DNA of 63,741 nt, filler included, from Ferroacidibacillus organovorans (GTDB lineage: Bacteria; Bacillota; Bacilli; Alicyclobacillales; SLC66), in assembly GCF_001642725.1 (NCBI RefSeq). It is 4 parts of 4 records of this genome, joined end to end, with 100 filler letters (N's around TTAATTAATTAA, not from the genome) between each part and the next. Parts side by side here need not be neighbours in the genome. Positions count along the whole stretch, not along the records: positions 17,144 to 33,438 come from NZ_LSUQ01000059.1; 3 more parts are not named here. One strand, given 5' to 3'. The notes beneath the pieces are model-generated. The model ran no database searches and had not been told where the DNA came from. It saw nothing but the letters and a program-made list of their open reading frames with translations. Positions within the stretch are counted from its first letter, which is position 1; every line of letters begins with the position of its first letter. The position numbers and the translations under genes were made by a program. Shown here in pieces: positions 2,214 to 49,165 of this stretch.

Positions 2214-3137
2214 GTGGGGGTGGAATTGGCGAAACTTCCGAAGATGAAACGTCGCCGCATCACGCGCAGTGCGGTCGATCAAGCGTTGGCTGGCTATCTT
2301 TTTGTTTTACCTGCGCTTGCTTCGCTCGTGATCTTTTTGTTGGGACCTATCATCTATTCCTTTTATATCAGCTTCCAACACTTCAACTATCTCGATCCGC
2401 AAGCGGCTACCTGGGCTGGACTTGACAACTATCTCCATCTCTTCGTTGATCCCGTCTTTTTGCAGGCGCTATGGAACACGTCTTTGTATACGCTTATCGT
2501 CGTTCCCGTACAAACCGCGCTCTCGCTGTTTCTCGCGCTGATCGTCGAGCGCATTCGCGGAAAAAGCTTTTTTCGCGTCGCCTATTATCTCCCTTCTGTC
2601 ACATCTTCTGTCGCTGTCAGCGTGATGTTTGTTTTTATCTTTGGACAGACGGGCCTTTTAAACAACTTTCTTTCTATTTTTGGGATTCAGGGGCCAAACT
2701 GGTTGAACAATCCGTCGACGGCGCTTCTCGCCGTGATGATGATCGGTGTGTGGACGACGGTCGGACAGTTTATGATCATCTATCTGTCGGGGTTACAATC
2801 GATTCCTGAAGACGTCTATGAAGCGGCGTCGATCGACGGCGCCGGGGGCGTGTCAATGCTTCGCTATATCACTGTTCCGCTCCTGAGGCGGACGACGTTT
2901 CTGATCGTGGTCATGGGAATGATTGGTACCTTTCAGTTGTTTGACACGGTCGATGTTATCTCAAACGGACAGGGCGGCCCGATTGGCAGCACGATGACCG
3001 TGGTGCTCGACATCTTTAACAAGGCGTTCCGGGATATGGCCATGGGCTACGCGGCTGCGATGTCGTTCTTCCTTTTTGTCATTATTCTTATCCTGACACT
3101 GATTCAGAATTTCGTGCTCGGGAGGGAGAATCAATGA
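2214..3137 (+). CDS. carbohydrate ABC transporter permease (MalF-like)
   Basis: Multiple TM segments; EAA loop YEAASIDGA. Confidence 0.92.
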   Translation: MGVELAKLPKMKRRRITRSAVDQALAGYLFVLPALASLVIFLLGPIIYSFYISFQHFNYLDPQAATWAGLDNYLHLFVDPVFLQALWNTSLYTLIVVPVQTALSLFLALIVERIRGKSFFRVAYYLPSVTSSVAVSVMFVFIFGQTGLLNNFLSIFGIQGPNWLNNPSTALLAVMMIGVWTTVGQFMIIYLSGLQSIPEDVYEAASIDGAGGVSMLRYITVPLLRRTTFLIVVMGMIGTFQLFDTVDVISNGQGGPIGSTMTVVLDIFNKAFRDMAMGYAAAMSFFLFVIILILTLIQNFVLGRENQ

Positions 3138-17043: not shown

Positions 17044-17143
17044 NNNNNNNNNNNNNNNNNNNNNNNNNNNNNNNNNNNNNNNNNNNNTTAATTAATTAAN
17101 NNNNNNNNNNNNNNNNNNNNNNNNNNNNNNNNNNNNNNNNNNN
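17044..17143. other. artificial contig linker
   Basis: N44-TTAATTAATTAA-N44 with stops in all six frames. Confidence 0.98.
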
Positions 17144-27368: not shown

Positions 27369-27522
27369 GCGGTGCCTGAAATACGGAATACACATGCCAA
27401 ATTGCTGCTAAAAATAAGCGCTAAAGCTGATCTGAACATACGTGACGTACATACATCCGTCAATACTTTCCGCCGCTTGGATGTATACTGACGGGAAACC
27501 ATCCAGAGAGGATGATTCACCC

Positions 27523-27762
27523 GTGAACTCCAACAATGGTCAACACAAATTTACCAACCGCCTGATCCACGAAAAATCCCCATACCTGCTCCAACACGCC
27601 CACAACCCGGTCGACTTGTACCCATGGGGGCCAGAGGCGTTCCAAAAAGCAGTCCGCGAGTCGAAGGCTGTATTCCCCTCCATCGGCTATTCGTAGCCCT
27701 GAGGGGCTATGAATAGCAATATACGCTGAAAGTGGATTCGTTTATCGACCTGTCACTGGTAG
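27523..27762 (+). pseudogene. yyaL: YyaL/DUF255 thioredoxin-domain gene, 5' fragment with a 54-nt in-frame gap, truncated after TCHW
   Basis: [32 protein letters not shown], then after 54 nt TCHW followed by TAG. Confidence 0.85.
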
Positions 27763-27968
27763 CGGATCCGTAAACTACTCCAGCCGAGATATTTTCAAGA
27801 AACCAATACGTTTATTTACATGACCTCACTTTGTTTCACTTCCCTTCTGAACGCAGTACCACGCTAACTTGACGTCTTCAAAAAACGACCCGCGCGCGTT
27901 ATAATTACCTTATGCAGTTGTGCAATATTGTTCGGGTCTATGCCGTTATGATAAAAGGAGGGCTGTCG

Positions 27969-28223
27969 GTGACTGTGGAGCGGGAAGAACTGCGGCGTTT
28001 GGTGGATGAACTCCCTGAAAATGAGCTGAATGCGGCACGCCGATACCTCGAATTCATTCGAGACGTGGGGAAGGATCCTGTTCGCTTTGCACTTGAAAAC
28101 GCTATGCTTGATGATGAACCGGAAACAGATGAAGAGAGGGAACGTGCCAAGCGGGCGGATGAGGATTTCATGGCTGGGCGAACGACGTCGATGGACGAAC
28201 TGAAGAGAGAACTGGGGCTATGA
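27969..28223 (+). CDS. putative type II antitoxin
   Basis: AAGGAGG RBS; acidic; C-terminal MDELKRELGL; ATGA overlap with the toxin. Confidence 0.75.
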   Translation: MTVEREELRRLVDELPENELNAARRYLEFIRDVGKDPVRFALENAMLDDEPETDEERERAKRADEDFMAGRTTSMDELKRELGL

Positions 28224-28480
28224 GATACGAGATTGAATGGTCTCAAGGGGCCCTGAAGGACATTCGGCGGTTGGACAAGCCGCTGATCGAGCGGATTACA
28301 CGCGCCATTGAGGTATTCGCCGAGACGGGTCGTGGCGACGTGAAACGTCTGATCAACGCGGATGGCGCGTATCGTTTGCGCGTGGGCGAGTGGAGAGTTC
28401 GGTTCCGCTTTGTTCATAGAGAGATTCAAATTATGCTCATCCAGGCTGTGTTGCCTCGGAGTGAAGCGTACAAACGCTGA
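28220..28480 (+). CDS. RelE/ParE family toxin
   Basis: ALKDIRRLD, GDVKRL, YRLRVGEWRVRF, RSEAYK. Confidence 0.88.
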   Translation: MRYEIEWSQGALKDIRRLDKPLIERITRAIEVFAETGRGDVKRLINADGAYRLRVGEWRVRFRFVHREIQIMLIQAVLPRSEAYKR

Positions 28481-28629: not shown

Positions 28630-30123
28630 TTATCGAAGCTTCACCTGAATATCGACCTCATCCCCGTTTCGCGTATATTCGATCCGCAGAGTGATCAGCT
28701 TCATAAGCCGATTCCGCTCCTTTACGTTGATAGCGGTTGTCCAGGACGCTTTGAGTTCATCAATCATCTGCAGCCGTTCGGCGTGAATGAGGGGCGAGTA
28801 CCCGTCCAAGCTCTCCTTTAGTTGCTCGTAATCGTTCTCCTTCTTCACAATGAGCTCCTTCAGGCGTTGCAGCCGCGTTTTGTATTCCAACTTTGTCACA
28901 TCGCCCATGACGAACAAGTCCTTGAGCCGATTTACTCCATCCCGCAGCGATTCGAGTTCTCGCTCCTTCGTGTGCAGCAGATGCTCCGTCGGAATTCCCG
29001 ATTCGTGAATTTAAATCGGCGTTCTCAGGAGCTCCGCTTCGTGTTCGCGTAGACTCTCTATGACCGCCCTTTCCACATGTTCGAGTTCGATCCCGCGATT
29101 GCCACAACATTTCCCAAAGGTATCCGTCTTCTGACACTTCTTCACGAGTGTGCGACCGTTCGGTTTCGGTTGGAACTGCAGGGAGTAGCCGCATTTGGCA
29201 CAATAGAGCAAGCCGGAGAGCAGGTATGTGCCGCGACGTGCGTGCTTGGGCTGGATTCGGCGGCTTTCAAGCAGCGTGACGATCCCTGCGTGTTCCTCCG
29301 GGGTCTTGACCGCTGGATGAGCATTTTCAACGACGATTCAGGTTTCACGTGGGATTACTTTGAACGGCGCAGCTTTACGTTTCTTGTGCAGTCCACCACT
29401 CGTTTTGCCGTAGACGACGCGACCGAGATGCACTTCATTCAGGATGAGCCGGTACAGCACGCTTTCAGACCACAGTTTGCCTTTCGGGGACGGGATGCAG
29501 CGACGGTTAAGCTCTCAGCAGACGCCGCTGCACGTGGCACCGCTCAAAATCCGTTGCTTCATGAAGTTGTAGACATCCAGTTTCTCGGGATCTACATCCA
29601 GGCTGTGGGCTTCTGAGTTATACACGTACGGGAAGGGGGCAGGACCGTTGGTCCAGTGGCCAAGCCTTGCCCCAATTTTCTTACCGCGCTGGAACCGCTT
29701 CTTAATCATCCGATACTCATACCGGGCGAAGACGCCCTCGATATCCGTGATCAGTTCCTGATCCTCATCGTTCAGGTCGTAGACGCGCTGTGGCGTGACA
29801 ACAAGGGTGTTCGACTTCTGAAGGGTCTTCTCTACCCGCGCCCGATCCTCTTTGTCGCCGCGACTGAGCCTGTCATAGTCCATGACCACGATGGCGTCAT
29901 AGAAATCATTCTCGATGTCCTTCAGCAGCCGTTTGAACTCGGGACGGAAATCGATACTGTCGGAACTGCCAATCTCCCGGTAAATGACATAGCGCCAGTT
30001 GTTTTTTCGAACGAGATCGGTAAGCGCGGTTTCGTGTTTGAGGAGGACATCTTCTTCATCGCCCGTGTCGTCCCGGCTTTTGCGCAAATACACAGCCACC
30101 TCATAAATTTTCTTCTGCTCCAT
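28630..30123 (-). pseudogene. large serine recombinase with three in-frame nonsense codons
   Basis: YLRKSR, DRLSRG, LYCAKCG zinc ribbon, coiled coil; single frame with stops at 29515-29517, 29338-29340 and 29011-29013. Confidence 0.88.
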
Positions 30124-30481
30124 GTCGTGTCACCTCGATTGTCAGGTTATAGTACGGATGTTCAGCTTGGCTCTGGGTTGCGGATGAAGTCAACGGCAGG
30201 AGATGGACGCCATTTCACGCTGCATGTGCGATATGGTGTCTTGGTGTGAAACCTGGGCACGGTCTGATGGCATACGTCCCGCCACATCGCCGCACACGTT
30301 GGCCCGTGTGCGGCGATTCGCGGCGCGGGCGACGGTAGGCAGATTTCCTCCAATCGCTGCGAATGCGGGGAACGTGTGGCGGCAAAGTTCAGGTAAGCAC
30401 CTACGGATAACAGGATTTGACTTGATGGCGGACGGGAACGAGAGTTACAGTCGGACAAACGTTTCCGGGAGTGGATCGCCA

Positions 30482-30760
30482 ATGTGTCAAATTGCGAAGA
30501 AACTATTGGCCGAAAAACTGATCGACGACTTTTACGAGGAATACGCGCGGGGCGGCGAACAGAATTCGCTGACCCAGCAAGACTTGGCTGACCGGCTCAA
30601 GGCGTTCTTGCCGACCGACCAACATGAATGGCTGTACCGATGGGAAGCCGAGTGCGTTGAGACCTGCGGCCGCGAACTATGGCGGTTTGCCGATTTCGTC
30701 GCGGGCATTTTGATGGGCACTCATCCTCATACAGAAGACGATGCGAGACGCGACGGGTAA
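30482..30760 (+). CDS. element-associated hypothetical protein
   Basis: Clear homolog of 53957-54247 (LLAEKLIDDFYE; ELxRFAxFVA). Confidence 0.7.
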   Translation: MCQIAKKLLAEKLIDDFYEEYARGGEQNSLTQQDLADRLKAFLPTDQHEWLYRWEAECVETCGRELWRFADFVAGILMGTHPHTEDDARRDG

Positions 30761-30781
30761 AATTTTGACGTAGGCAGATTT

Positions 30782-31006
30782 CTATCGATCCTGATTACCA
30801 CCCGTTTGTCTTCCTTCGGTCGTCATCCGATGGAGGATGCTGTGTAAGGCGGTTTGGAAGTTTTCCACCGCCTCTTTCGACGGTTCGTTACAAGTCAATC
30901 GGATGACGATGTTCCCGCAATCGAACGTGAAGGTCTTCACGTTACCGGATATCGCATCCGAAGTTTGATGACAATTGGGCTCGCACAAGTCTGTATGAGA
31001 CGCCAC
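30782..31006 (-). CDS. small hypothetical protein
   Basis: GAGGAGG RBS before GTG; PSKEAVENF motif; co-oriented with the relaxase-like gene. Confidence 0.5.
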   Translation of the reverse strand: MASHTDLCEPNCHQTSDAISGNVKTFTFDCGNIVIRLTCNEPSKEAVENFQTALHSILHRMTTEGRQTGGNQDR

Positions 31007-31045
31007 GGGAATTCCTCCTCTCGCAAATCATCCACAGCCTGTGAA

Positions 31046-32027
31046 TCACGATTTCTTTGTAAAGGGCGAGAATCGGGTTTGTTTCCCCAGCGGGGTTACC
31101 GAGCGGTATGTATTCCCGTCCGTTCTCGGAAACTCTTCAAAGCGTGATTCCCACTCCGAACGTCCGCTCCAGACCGACCCCAAAATACCCTCTGCGTCCA
31201 GTCGGCGTTCTGTAATGACCCAAACCGGCGGAATCGGCTGTCCCTTGAGATGGGTCTCAAGTAATCCGTCCCACAGTTCCAAAATTCGTTCGACGCGGTG
31301 TTCTTCCCGCGTGATAAATAAGATGTTGGCTGACCCCACATCTGCCCAAAACTTCGGGAGATGCGACGCGTAGTTCCACAGTTTTTGATACAACGTCCAG
31401 GCCGTGCTCACTGCCCGTATCGTATTCCACATGAAAGGTCACGGCCGAACCATCCGCGAAACGATAGGTGCCGATGCCATCTGGTCGAATGGGCGTTGCT
31501 CGTCGTCCTTTGGCGTCTGTGATGGCGTAGCGATCCCCGCTGTGCCGCATGCCAATCCACTCCACTAGCCCTTCATCGACATAAGAGAGGCTCTCTAAAA
31601 TCAGATTTGTAAAAAAGCAGTTTGTTCCGTACAGATGCACGACTTGGCTGGGTGGCGATCCTGGTTGACGCAGCAATGCAGAGCGGTTTTCCTTCGTGAG
31701 ACCGAGATTGAGTTGCAGCCCCGCCTTGGTCAACGACCATCCTTTGACATTGTGGCGCAGAAAGGTAAGGCGCATCGGTTGCACCCAATCCGATTTTTTC
31801 ATCTTGCCGAGTGTCTGGTACATCGTATCAGGCCGATAGTGCAACAGTGTACAGAGCTGATCGACGGTTAACATGGTGTATCGGTACAAGGCGAGCAGGA
31901 ATTCCTGCTCCTGGTTTCGAGGGGCCAGCAAGTGCGCGTCCTCCTTTCCTTTGCGGGCGGAATGTGGATATATGTCCCGATTGATTTGATTCGTCGATCC
32001 GCATGGTGGCGGGAACCATCCACTCAT
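31046..32027 (-). pseudogene. replication-relaxation (Replic_Relax) family protein, frameshifted
   Basis: RPDG and HVEYDTGSE; homolog of 57727-58698; frame changes near 31400. Confidence 0.8.
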
Positions 32028-32095
32028 CCGCCCGCTCGCGTTTTGTTGGGAGTTCCGTGTCGAGTACCGTGCGAAGTTTTGTTCGGTGTTTGAGC

Positions 32096-33438
32096 TTACG
32101 CTTCGCCCGCGTTTTGGCGCTTCTTCGATGATTTGCCTCCCGGAAGCGTGGGTTGCTGCTTGGAAGATAGCAGGGATCGCCGCGTCATCTCGTCGATTTC
32201 GCGATCCACCTCCTCTGCGGGACGACCGTCGTGCCGATCGGAATGGGCAAACGCGCGCTCAATCCAATCTTCATGCCCAAGTGACACGACGGGATTTTGC
32301 ATGGTGAATAGTTGGGTGACGCCGCCGTCCAGTTTGGTGCGGACCAATGCATGCGTCTCCGGGAGGTTGAGCAGGTCGCGGGAGGATACATCGGGCTTGA
32401 GCCAACGGGTCAGGCGGTCGGCGTCCGGGCCACCGAGTTGGAGCAGGATGAGCGTGCCTACGTTTCCCAAGATGCCTGCGAGGATGGGGTCGGGCAGTTG
32501 GTCGAGATACTGCGTGGCGAGCATGAGCGATAAGCCAAATTTCCGGTCCTCGGCCAAAATGCGTTGCAGGATGTTCACCGCATACAGATGGCACTCGTCG
32601 GCGACGAACAGGTGGAGCCGGGCGGCGTGTTCGGGCCGCTTCTGACAGGTGAAGTGCATGTTGATCAAGTACAGCCCGGCGATGATCTTGATGGCGTCCT
32701 CGGTACAGTGAGAGCCGTCGATGAGGATCATGTCTCCCTGGTCCATCGCACGGCGCAGGTCGATTGCGCTTTGGGTCTGCCCGAGAATCCGGCGCAGAGA
32801 AGGGTAGGTGGTCAAAGCGCCAAGCTTGTTCCAAATCGGGCCAAGATGTTCCCCGATGTTCTTGATCTGCGAAAACTCCTCCGTCCAGAACTGCTGCAAG
32901 TGGAACGGGAGTTTGCGGACGAGTTGATCCCGAAACATCTCGTCCAAAAACAGGCGGGTGATGCCGAGCACCGTTTGCGGCGGATCGTGCAACAGGGACA
33001 GGACGTTGTTGCGCAGATAAAGCTCCGAACGTGGCCGCGATCCCGGCCAGAGTTCCTGCATCATCGCGACAAACTCGCCCGTCACCGCTTCAGCTTGCTC
33101 CAGATCATCTAGAGCAAAAGGATTCAAGCCGCGCGGATACTTGGTCGGGCCAAGCGGAACAATGTGCATCTTTGGGTAGAGTGAGGGTGGAATGTGCGAC
33201 AACAGCTTCTGGATGGCACCGCCATGCGGATCGAGAAAAGTGAAACCGGGTGCCGTGTCGGCTCCTTCTGCATCTGATCCACGATCCCGAGTAGGGTTTG
33301 AAGAAGAGTCGTGGTCTTGCCTGACCCCGTGGTCCCGGCGAGAAATGCGTGCTTCGCCATCTGACGAAGGGGAATGCGGATTTCTTCTCCCTCCCGTCCG
33401 GGGAAATCGGACCACCCGACACGTATTCCGCTGGTCCG
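32096..33438 (-). pseudogene. VirD4/TraD-like coupling ATPase, 5'-partial and frameshifted
   Basis: GTTGSGKT is in a different frame from FLDPHGG/ADECH/EDRKFGL; strong similarity to 55306-57603. Confidence 0.82.
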
Positions 33439-33538
33439 NNNNNNNNNNNNNNNNNNNNNNNNNNNNNNNNNNNNNNNNNNNNTTAATTAATTAANNNNNN
33501 NNNNNNNNNNNNNNNNNNNNNNNNNNNNNNNNNNNNNN
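33439..33538. other. artificial contig linker
   Basis: N44-TTAATTAATTAA-N44. Confidence 0.98.
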
Positions 33539-49065: not shown

Positions 49066-49165
49066 NNNNNNNNNNNNNNNNNNNNNNNNNNNNNNNNNNN
49101 NNNNNNNNNTTAATTAATTAANNNNNNNNNNNNNNNNNNNNNNNNNNNNNNNNNNNNNNNNNNNN
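49066..49165. other. artificial contig linker
   Basis: N44-TTAATTAATTAA-N44. Confidence 0.98.

Follow-up and report, generated by a model that had tools for sequence, protein, structure and literature searches.

The yyaL gene of Ferroacidibacillus organovorans raises the question of how a reading frame split by a short, stop-containing stretch in the conserved motif SIGYS-TCHW could still yield a protein. The copy that prompted the question lies in a 63,741-nucleotide (nt) stretch of DNA from this organism (RefSeq assembly GCF_001642725.1), here called the window. The window is composed of four contigs (C58, C59, C61 and C63) of a 98-contig assembly, joined by N runs at 17044-17143, 33439-33538 and 49066-49165, and the split gene lies on C59; gene order across the joins is not evidence of linkage because the contigs were simply set end to end. 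The original prediction, made from this copy, proposed that matched Ser codons on either side of the interruption serve as take-off and landing sites for a translating ribosome, and offered a tiny excisable insert as an alternative. From comparison of yyaL genes across many genomes, we consider it probable that full-length copies with such a gap are expressed by programmed translational bypass, and that what is bypassed is an arm of a recombinase-binding site.

In the window, an upstream open reading frame (ORF; 27442-27696, forward strand) terminates in ...SIGYS, the last residue being encoded by the TCG Ser codon at the take-off position (27691-27693). The TAG stop directly 3′ of this codon (27694-27696), itself followed by C, opens a 54-nt coding gap (27694-27747) whose final triplet is a second TCG Ser codon, at the landing position (27745-27747). 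Coding sequence then resumes with ACC TGT CAC TGG (TCHW; 27748-27759) before a TAG stop at 27760-27762. In-frame translation across the gap gives S*P*GAMNSNIR*KWIRLS, the stops being the TAG and two TGA codons. The take-off site is enclosed in a hairpin (27686-27717; arms 27686-27699 and 27704-27717) with the Tyr and Ser codons and the stop in its 5′ arm; the 14-nt stem is 93% complementary, with one G-U pair and a 4-nt loop. The elements named in the original prediction are all present at the positions given for them there. The minimum free energy of the RNA fold of 27676-27765 is -37.9 kcal/mol, compared with -22.6 +/- 3.1 kcal/mol in 200 shuffles (z = -4.97, 0/200 equal), and the fold is thus more stable than chance gives. 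We also considered an intrinsic terminator, which is unlikely given that no T-run lies 3′ of the hairpin.

The window copy itself is a dead 5′ fragment, a relic displaced at a mobile-element junction. Its 57 codons (27523-27693, forward strand) match positions 1-47 of Pfam PF03190 (E = 1e-15) and run from a GTG to ...SIGYS, and alignment with the six other copies in the genome indicates that the GTG at 27523 is likely the true start. As the original prediction had cautioned, the copy is truncated after TCHW: yyaL homology is lost after CACTG, and the sequence downstream is common to other truncated copies. Two substitutions, W>L (NPVDL) and L>P (VFPSIGYS), fall at positions conserved in 48/48 listed full-length copies.

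The gap is not peculiar to this relic. The same genome contains seven 5′ yyaL pieces, each with the TAG, and a single 3′ part. Its sole full-length yyaL, on contig C54, has ~690 open codons, interrupted only by a 54-nt gap at this same position. Sequence identity between the window copy and the others in the genome ranges from 75 to 87%; the copies are therefore old and diverse rather than recent duplicates. Across the order, yyaL is found in 57/64 genomes and is uninterrupted in only five of them (G018, G051, G052, G053 and G063); of 81 distinct copies parsed, 51 are full-length, and 46 of these carry the gap. In a sample of the class comprising 301 genomes, 115 have yyaL, and a gapped full-length gene occurs in 14 genomes from seven other families. 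The prediction that yyaL genes elsewhere would be interrupted at this codon was thus borne out, and with it fell the possibility that the gap is unique to one dead copy. An assembly artefact was rejected, as the gap is seen in >60 genomes and in RNA reads. These counts were taken from a search of a genome collection and not from a 14-base contig pattern, which proved too short: ~8 yyaL cassettes were among the 119 stretches that it listed, nearly all the rest being chance or unrelated matches. Loci matching that pattern include members of Alicyclobacillaceae and Sulfoacidibacillus (among the matches listed). A hairpin-pattern scan of metagenomes gave at least 121 loci, eight further yyaL cassettes among those listed, and the same kind of scan of viral contigs gave 13 loci, none of which is a yyaL cassette. 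A further 166 strand matches from the viral and metagenome scans, only glanced over, gave no hint of a cassette in another gene.

Gap size and sequence vary widely at this one codon. The homologous gaps in 60 full-length genes range from 18 to 61 nt, with 26 different lengths among full-length genes and 74 distinct gap sequences overall. Ten full-length genes from several families (L017, L023, L165, L175, L176, L206, L207, L209, L217 and L219) have gaps of 18-21 nt, some with matched codons (TCC/TCC, AGC/AGC, AGC/AGT). For the 51- and 54-nt cassettes, gap identity between genomes is 0.94 versus ~0.5 for the adjoining 3′ parts, the latter figure coming from an ungapped comparison that insertions and deletions may lower; this suggests that these two classes have spread horizontally and recently. 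In the 33-nt class, by contrast, divergence matches on both sides of the gap.

The gapped copies share a set of signals around the interruption. A stop directly follows the Ser codon in 85/85 gapped copies (TAG in 76, TGA in 6, TAA in 3), and the next base is C in 82 of them. The landing codon is readable by the take-off tRNA, being identical or Y-wobble equivalent, in 36/74 distinct gaps, as against 0-2/74 at 12 other offsets, and the two codons share at least two of three bases in 69/74. Take-off and landing codons co-vary as TCG/TCG (22 full-length copies), TCC/TCC, TCC/TCT, TCA/TCA, AGC/AGC and AGC/AGT, and within one homologous 29-30-nt cassette family TCG..TCG has switched jointly to TCA..TCA. 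The window's genome encodes tRNA-Ser with the anticodons CGA, UGA, GGA and GCU. A hairpin holding the Tyr and Ser codons and the stop in its 5′ arm is found in 50/60 full-length gaps; over 46 distinct copies pairing holds in 93.8% of cells, and 0/500 shuffles reach the observed values. In 13 sequences a U-A pair of the hairpin is replaced by C-G, joining a synonymous third-base change in the Tyr codon to a change in its gap partner, and in one TGA-stop cassette the stem has changed to match the stop (UGACC...GGUCA). The original prediction had called for matched codons that co-vary and for compensatory stem changes: in most cassette classes the codon match is preserved or the two codons change together, and the stem change was found at one hairpin pair.

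Toward the 3′ end of the gap, most cassettes carry a Shine-Dalgarno-like GGAG or GAGG, 6-9 nt ahead of the landing codon, and the motif is also present in the element-side arm described below; L011, L014 and L026 have degenerate versions of it, and the window has GGAT. The gap also includes an A/U-rich spacer. In one full-length copy (L007:1626-1685), the predicted fold lengthens the hairpin, with the GGAG of the gap pairing with CUCC of the upstream Leu-Ser codons. N-terminal peptides of gapped and gapless genes, compared by eye for a nascent-peptide signal, showed no clear cassette-specific residues.

Both coding parts of gapped genes are under purifying selection. The 3′ parts are open for at least 614 codons in 48/48 copies checked. 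Among six species with the common 33-nt gap, the ratio of nonsynonymous to synonymous divergence (dN/dS) of the 3′ part is 0.09-0.12 at dS 0.23-1.03, and their 45-codon 5′ parts have dN 0-0.01 at dS 0.1-1.4. Among all pairs with dS <1.5, the 3′ part has a median dN/dS of 0.35 (62 pairs) and the 5′ part one of 0.08 (184 pairs), and the codons for CHWC vary at synonymous sites only. Each of the six 33-nt-gap species has one yyaL match per genome, and thus no other 5′ end from which the gene could be restored. The upstream flank of one of them holds ordinary-looking genes, with no recombinase and no second 5′ fragment.

The gap is also retained in RNA. A gene with a 55-nt gap (L168, gap at positions 2311-2365, minus strand) is present in 20 public RNA runs from five studies, of which we compared two raw-read and two contig runs, all bearing on one species. 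Strand-specific read depth through the gap is ~97-100 in one raw-read run and 287-358 in the other, and neither of these two runs lists a joint or deletion at the gap at a 1% threshold; contigs of both contig runs cross it unchanged. In one run (X21), 17 fixed differences from the reference fall in the yyaL 3′ part (L168:1924-2215) and none in L168:2216-2599, which covers the 5′ cassette, the gap and the ~100 nt that follow it, a pattern that would fit a cassette common to strains with differing host genes. Upstream of yyaL, reads from both strands pile up very deeply over L168:2675-2811, with numerous loose ends and a joint that goes back 48; this stretch has the look of a small element, repeated or strongly expressed, that has nothing to do with the gap.

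Why such a gap should persist is suggested by what its 3′ end contains. In the window, the left arm of an inverted repeat (27729-27749) comprises AC and the 19 nt of gap before it, and is 12/21 complementary to a right, element-side arm at 27766-27786 across a 16-nt core (27750-27765), all on the forward strand. The left arm takes in the Shine-Dalgarno-like position (GGAT here, GGAG in most copies) and the landing TCG. Its sequence (GGATTCGTTTA) matches an element-side subclass seen elsewhere, and the right-arm family also follows CACTG in truncated copies of many genomes. The repeat is perfect over 19 nt, with arms 16 nt apart, in a truncated copy from the window's genome (L005) and in L184, where the left arm consists of AC and the preceding 17 nt of gap, and the right arm of the sequence after the break. 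Complementarity over 21 nt averages 11.7 (maximum 19) at 27 truncated junctions versus 6.6 in 67 full-length genes, in which the right-hand side of the comparison is yyaL coding sequence. Arm subclasses on the gap side and the element side co-vary. The crossover probably falls at the central TG of CAC-TG-G, since it is there, at the midpoint of the core, that yyaL homology stops, after CACTG(G). Displaced 5′ fragments that lack a gap and adjoin element arms (L179, L180, L220 and L222) are the expected leftover of a first integration into an uninterrupted gene. Repeated integration should leave further 5′ fragments upstream of the full gene and in its orientation, and this arrangement is seen in complete genomes. 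On the element side, GGAC forms the end of the arms; the TGG class of landing codons keeps this symmetry, whereas the TCG, CCG and GCG classes deviate towards the take-off codon, an asymmetry that may reflect a compromise between the needs of recombinase and ribosome. That the serine recombinase uses this site is what this junction structure would imply.

These observations suggest the following sequence of events. An element encoding a large serine recombinase would recombine at the TGY-CAY-TG(G) codons of the CxxC motif, displacing the 5′ end of yyaL. Beside its attachment site the element would carry a replacement promoter, a 5′ yyaL cassette and the gap, so that integration would swap the host's 5′ end for its own and create a hybrid gene made of 57 element codons, a gap of 18-61 nt and the remaining ~640 host codons. 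The left attachment arm would stay in the message untranslated because it cannot encode ...FLSIGYS. A ribosome holding peptidyl-tRNA-Ser would pause at the stop, leave the take-off codon, slide over the gap and re-pair at the landing codon, and translation would resume at the Thr codon to give a normal ...SIGYS-TCHWC... protein. The gap would accordingly exist because the recombinase arm must sit there. More broadly, we lean towards the idea that such elements hide a recombinase arm within the host reading frame and supply the signals to hop over it, such that the gene works while the element is integrated.

Several points weigh against bypassing. The hopping itself we infer from sequence alone. 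The codon pairs are not always favorable: TCG faces TGG, a middle-base mismatch, in 8 full-length and 9 truncated copies and faces CCG or GCG in 10 full-length copies, and TCC faces TTT in L162, L212, L214 and L218, where a TTT landing would presumably pair with anticodon GGA only via two G-U pairs. The hairpin is missing from the 18-21-nt classes (10/60 full-length gaps), and its covariation concerns a single pair among related sequences. Because landing codon and GGAG both lie inside the attachment-site arm, their conservation may partly serve the recombinase, and a role of GGAG as a landing aid is inseparable from recombinase binding for the same reason. The horizontal spread of the 51- and 54-nt cassettes means that their intact 3′ ORFs could partly reflect recent arrival. 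Finally, RNA depth in the 5′ part of L168 is ~2 times that just after the gap; this twofold drop would fit partial termination but proves nothing, and bypassing may be inefficient. The RNA comparison, moreover, concerns one species only.

Some of these observations would also fit other explanations. Ribosomes might terminate at the TAG, releasing a 57-residue peptide, and re-initiate near the landing site with the aid of GGAG, the two chains working together or separately. The GGAG-like motif would suit such a scheme by its position, 6-9 nt ahead of landing in most cassettes, as would the drop in RNA depth after the gap; in L018, L025, L166, L172 and L006 an in-frame ATG is also available one codon ahead of landing. 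Most classes, however, lack an in-frame start between the motif and TCHWC, where they read TTA-TCG, TTA-CCG or CCT-TCG, and the start codon is also missing in the 33-nt class, for which the evidence of selection is strongest. Re-initiation, which would leave both the covariation of the last gap codon with the Ser codon and the hairpin around the stop unexplained, therefore strikes us as improbable. We are similarly doubtful that gapped genes are simply off, the gap being an integration scar (attR), yyaL working only after excision, and the ORFs being intact because integration is recent. Excision could indeed rejoin the gapless displaced fragments (L179, L180, L220 and L222) to a 3′ part, and the 51- and 54-nt cassettes, far more alike than the adjacent 3′ parts, have the look of recent spread. 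Yet the six single-copy 33-nt species have diverged to dS ~1 with open frames and dN/dS of ~0.1 or below in both parts, the flank examined in one of them offers neither a recombinase nor a second 5′ fragment, transcription runs through the gap, and purifying selection also acts strongly on the 5′ part that the element carries (median dN/dS 0.08 in 184 pairs).

Removal of the gap before translation, whether from RNA by a novel cut-and-ligate step at the hairpin or from DNA in a subpopulation of cells, would make sense of the short matched ends and of the strong hairpin at the 5′ edge. It is very unlikely in view of the RNA data, in which the two raw-read runs have no skipping reads or deletions at the 1% threshold and the contigs of the other two are unchanged; the gap is present in every assembly examined, and no boundary motif except the stop codon is conserved across gap classes. 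The tiny excisable insert of the original prediction is thus unsupported: retention in the mRNA of one species and in all assemblies examined speaks against removal. Readthrough or recoding of the TAG, with the gap translated as extra residues, would accommodate the window's 54-nt gap and the 33/60 full-length gaps that are multiples of three. It is excluded because the other 27/60 shift the frame, and we leave it next to no probability; many gaps also hold two or three different stops, and the extra residues would fall directly before the CxxC helix. Selenocysteine- or pyrrolysine-type reading was rejected on the same ground, many gaps shifting the frame. Programmed bypass remains our preferred explanation for the full-length gapped genes, and the sequence comparisons support the bypass element of the original prediction.

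The genes downstream of the window junction are in keeping with an integrative element. A small ORF (27912-28223, forward strand), a putative antitoxin judging from its position and without a Pfam match, precedes a ParE-family toxin (28220-28480, forward strand; PF05016, E = 2e-7). A large serine recombinase (28630-30123, minus strand; PF00239 and PF13408) is broken into at least three ORFs, corresponding to a Resolvase domain (29515-30123), a zinc ribbon (29011-29211) and a C-terminal piece (28630-28917). Beyond it on the minus strand lie a Replic_Relax protein (31257-32027; PF13814, E = 1.6e-10) and a weak TrwB-like coupling-protein match (32096-33415; PF10412, E = 0.0076, below Pfam's cut-off), and 31257-33415 thus comprises transfer genes of the element. 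Contig C56 of the same genome (L231) matches window 28640-33438 over 4812 aligned bases at 88% identity and starts with a junction of the same family as the window's. Its recombinase is intact (497 aa, with Resolvase, Recombinase and Zn_ribbon_recom domains), and its Replic_Relax and coupling homologues score better than those of the window; the element's cargo there includes a subtilase with an AAA ATPase and a trypsin-like peptidase. Within the stretches examined, no recombinase lies beside three other junctions. Cargo adjacent to junctions is largely of defence type, including type I restriction-modification, STAND and KAP NTPases, TOTE primase and Mrr. On C54 (L226), the full-length yyaL is immediately preceded by type I restriction-modification genes (HsdS, HsdR) and a gene for a 1485-aa STAND NTPase, which suggests that the resident island is a defence island.

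According to Atkins et al. 2016 (PMC5009743), efficient long-distance hopping is firmly known only from T4 gene 60 with its phage relatives and from one yeast mitochondrial group, and whether cells use hopping in their own genes has been an open question for decades. In full-text searches of the literature we found no publication linking yyaL, Alicyclobacillus or serine recombinases with bypassing, although preprint supplements might list further cassettes. If our explanation is true, yyaL would be the first cellular bacterial gene with a widespread programmed translational bypass, and the need to reconcile a DNA-binding site with a coding sequence would be a reason for bypass cassettes to arise; the link to the serine-recombinase arm suggests how and why such cassettes originate. 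The yyaL genes also provide a natural mutational series for the mechanism, in which stop codon, codon pair, hairpin and length (18-61 nt) vary at one codon, in dozens of acid-loving Bacilli that are culturable and non-pathogenic. Moreover, yyaL genes annotated as pseudogenes for an internal stop may be functional.

Serine-recombinase elements inside genes have precedents in Bacillus subtilis, where excision of the skin element from sigK and of SPbeta from spsM restores the gene. The yyaL system resembles these in having a serine recombinase gene beside an attachment site in a conserved ORF, and in its inverted-repeat arms and short core. It differs in that the element brings a replacement 5′ end and in that the residual arm stays in the frame, where it is apparently handled at translation. 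For T4 gene 60 we rely on section 10 of the Manning and Atkins preprint; as presented there, the cassette and its relatives reside in myovirus topoisomerase genes as part of the mobile MobA element, and their features parallel those of yyaL closely. In both, take-off and landing codons are matched or wobble-equivalent, a stop, usually UAG and sometimes UGA, directly follows the take-off codon, and the take-off codon lies in a stem-loop with a C/G tip and a stable tetraloop. Both also have an A/U-rich spacer, a constant insertion point in the host gene and delivery by a mobile element. Gene 60 cassettes have a mini Shine-Dalgarno motif shortly ahead of landing, to which the GGAG of most yyaL cassettes may correspond, and the short yyaL classes are like a 20-nt gene 60 relative without a stem-loop. 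Unlike gene 60, yyaL is a chromosomal gene of cellular hosts, in Bacilli, and not a phage gene; its carrier is a serine-recombinase integrative element rather than a homing-endonuclease cassette, part of the gap is the attachment-site arm of that element, and the gaps span 18-61 nt, with common classes in which the landing codon matches at two of three bases. Because a blastn search of 50,697 phage records with the cassette region returned nothing at E <= 1, we do not claim homology to the T4 gene 60/MobA cassettes; against plasmids, blastn returned ordinary yyaL coding matches only. The 'byp' inserts of Magnusiomyces capitatus mitochondria, as described in PMC5009743, are likewise short, mobile, located within essential coding sequence and thought to be hopped over, and they have imperfect take-off and landing sites at which two-out-of-three pairing is tolerated, recalling yyaL. 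Whereas the 81 byp inserts are spread over many genes and are described as largely context-independent, the yyaL gap always occupies the same position of a single gene, where it comes with a dedicated hairpin and a stop codon and is tied to site-specific recombination.

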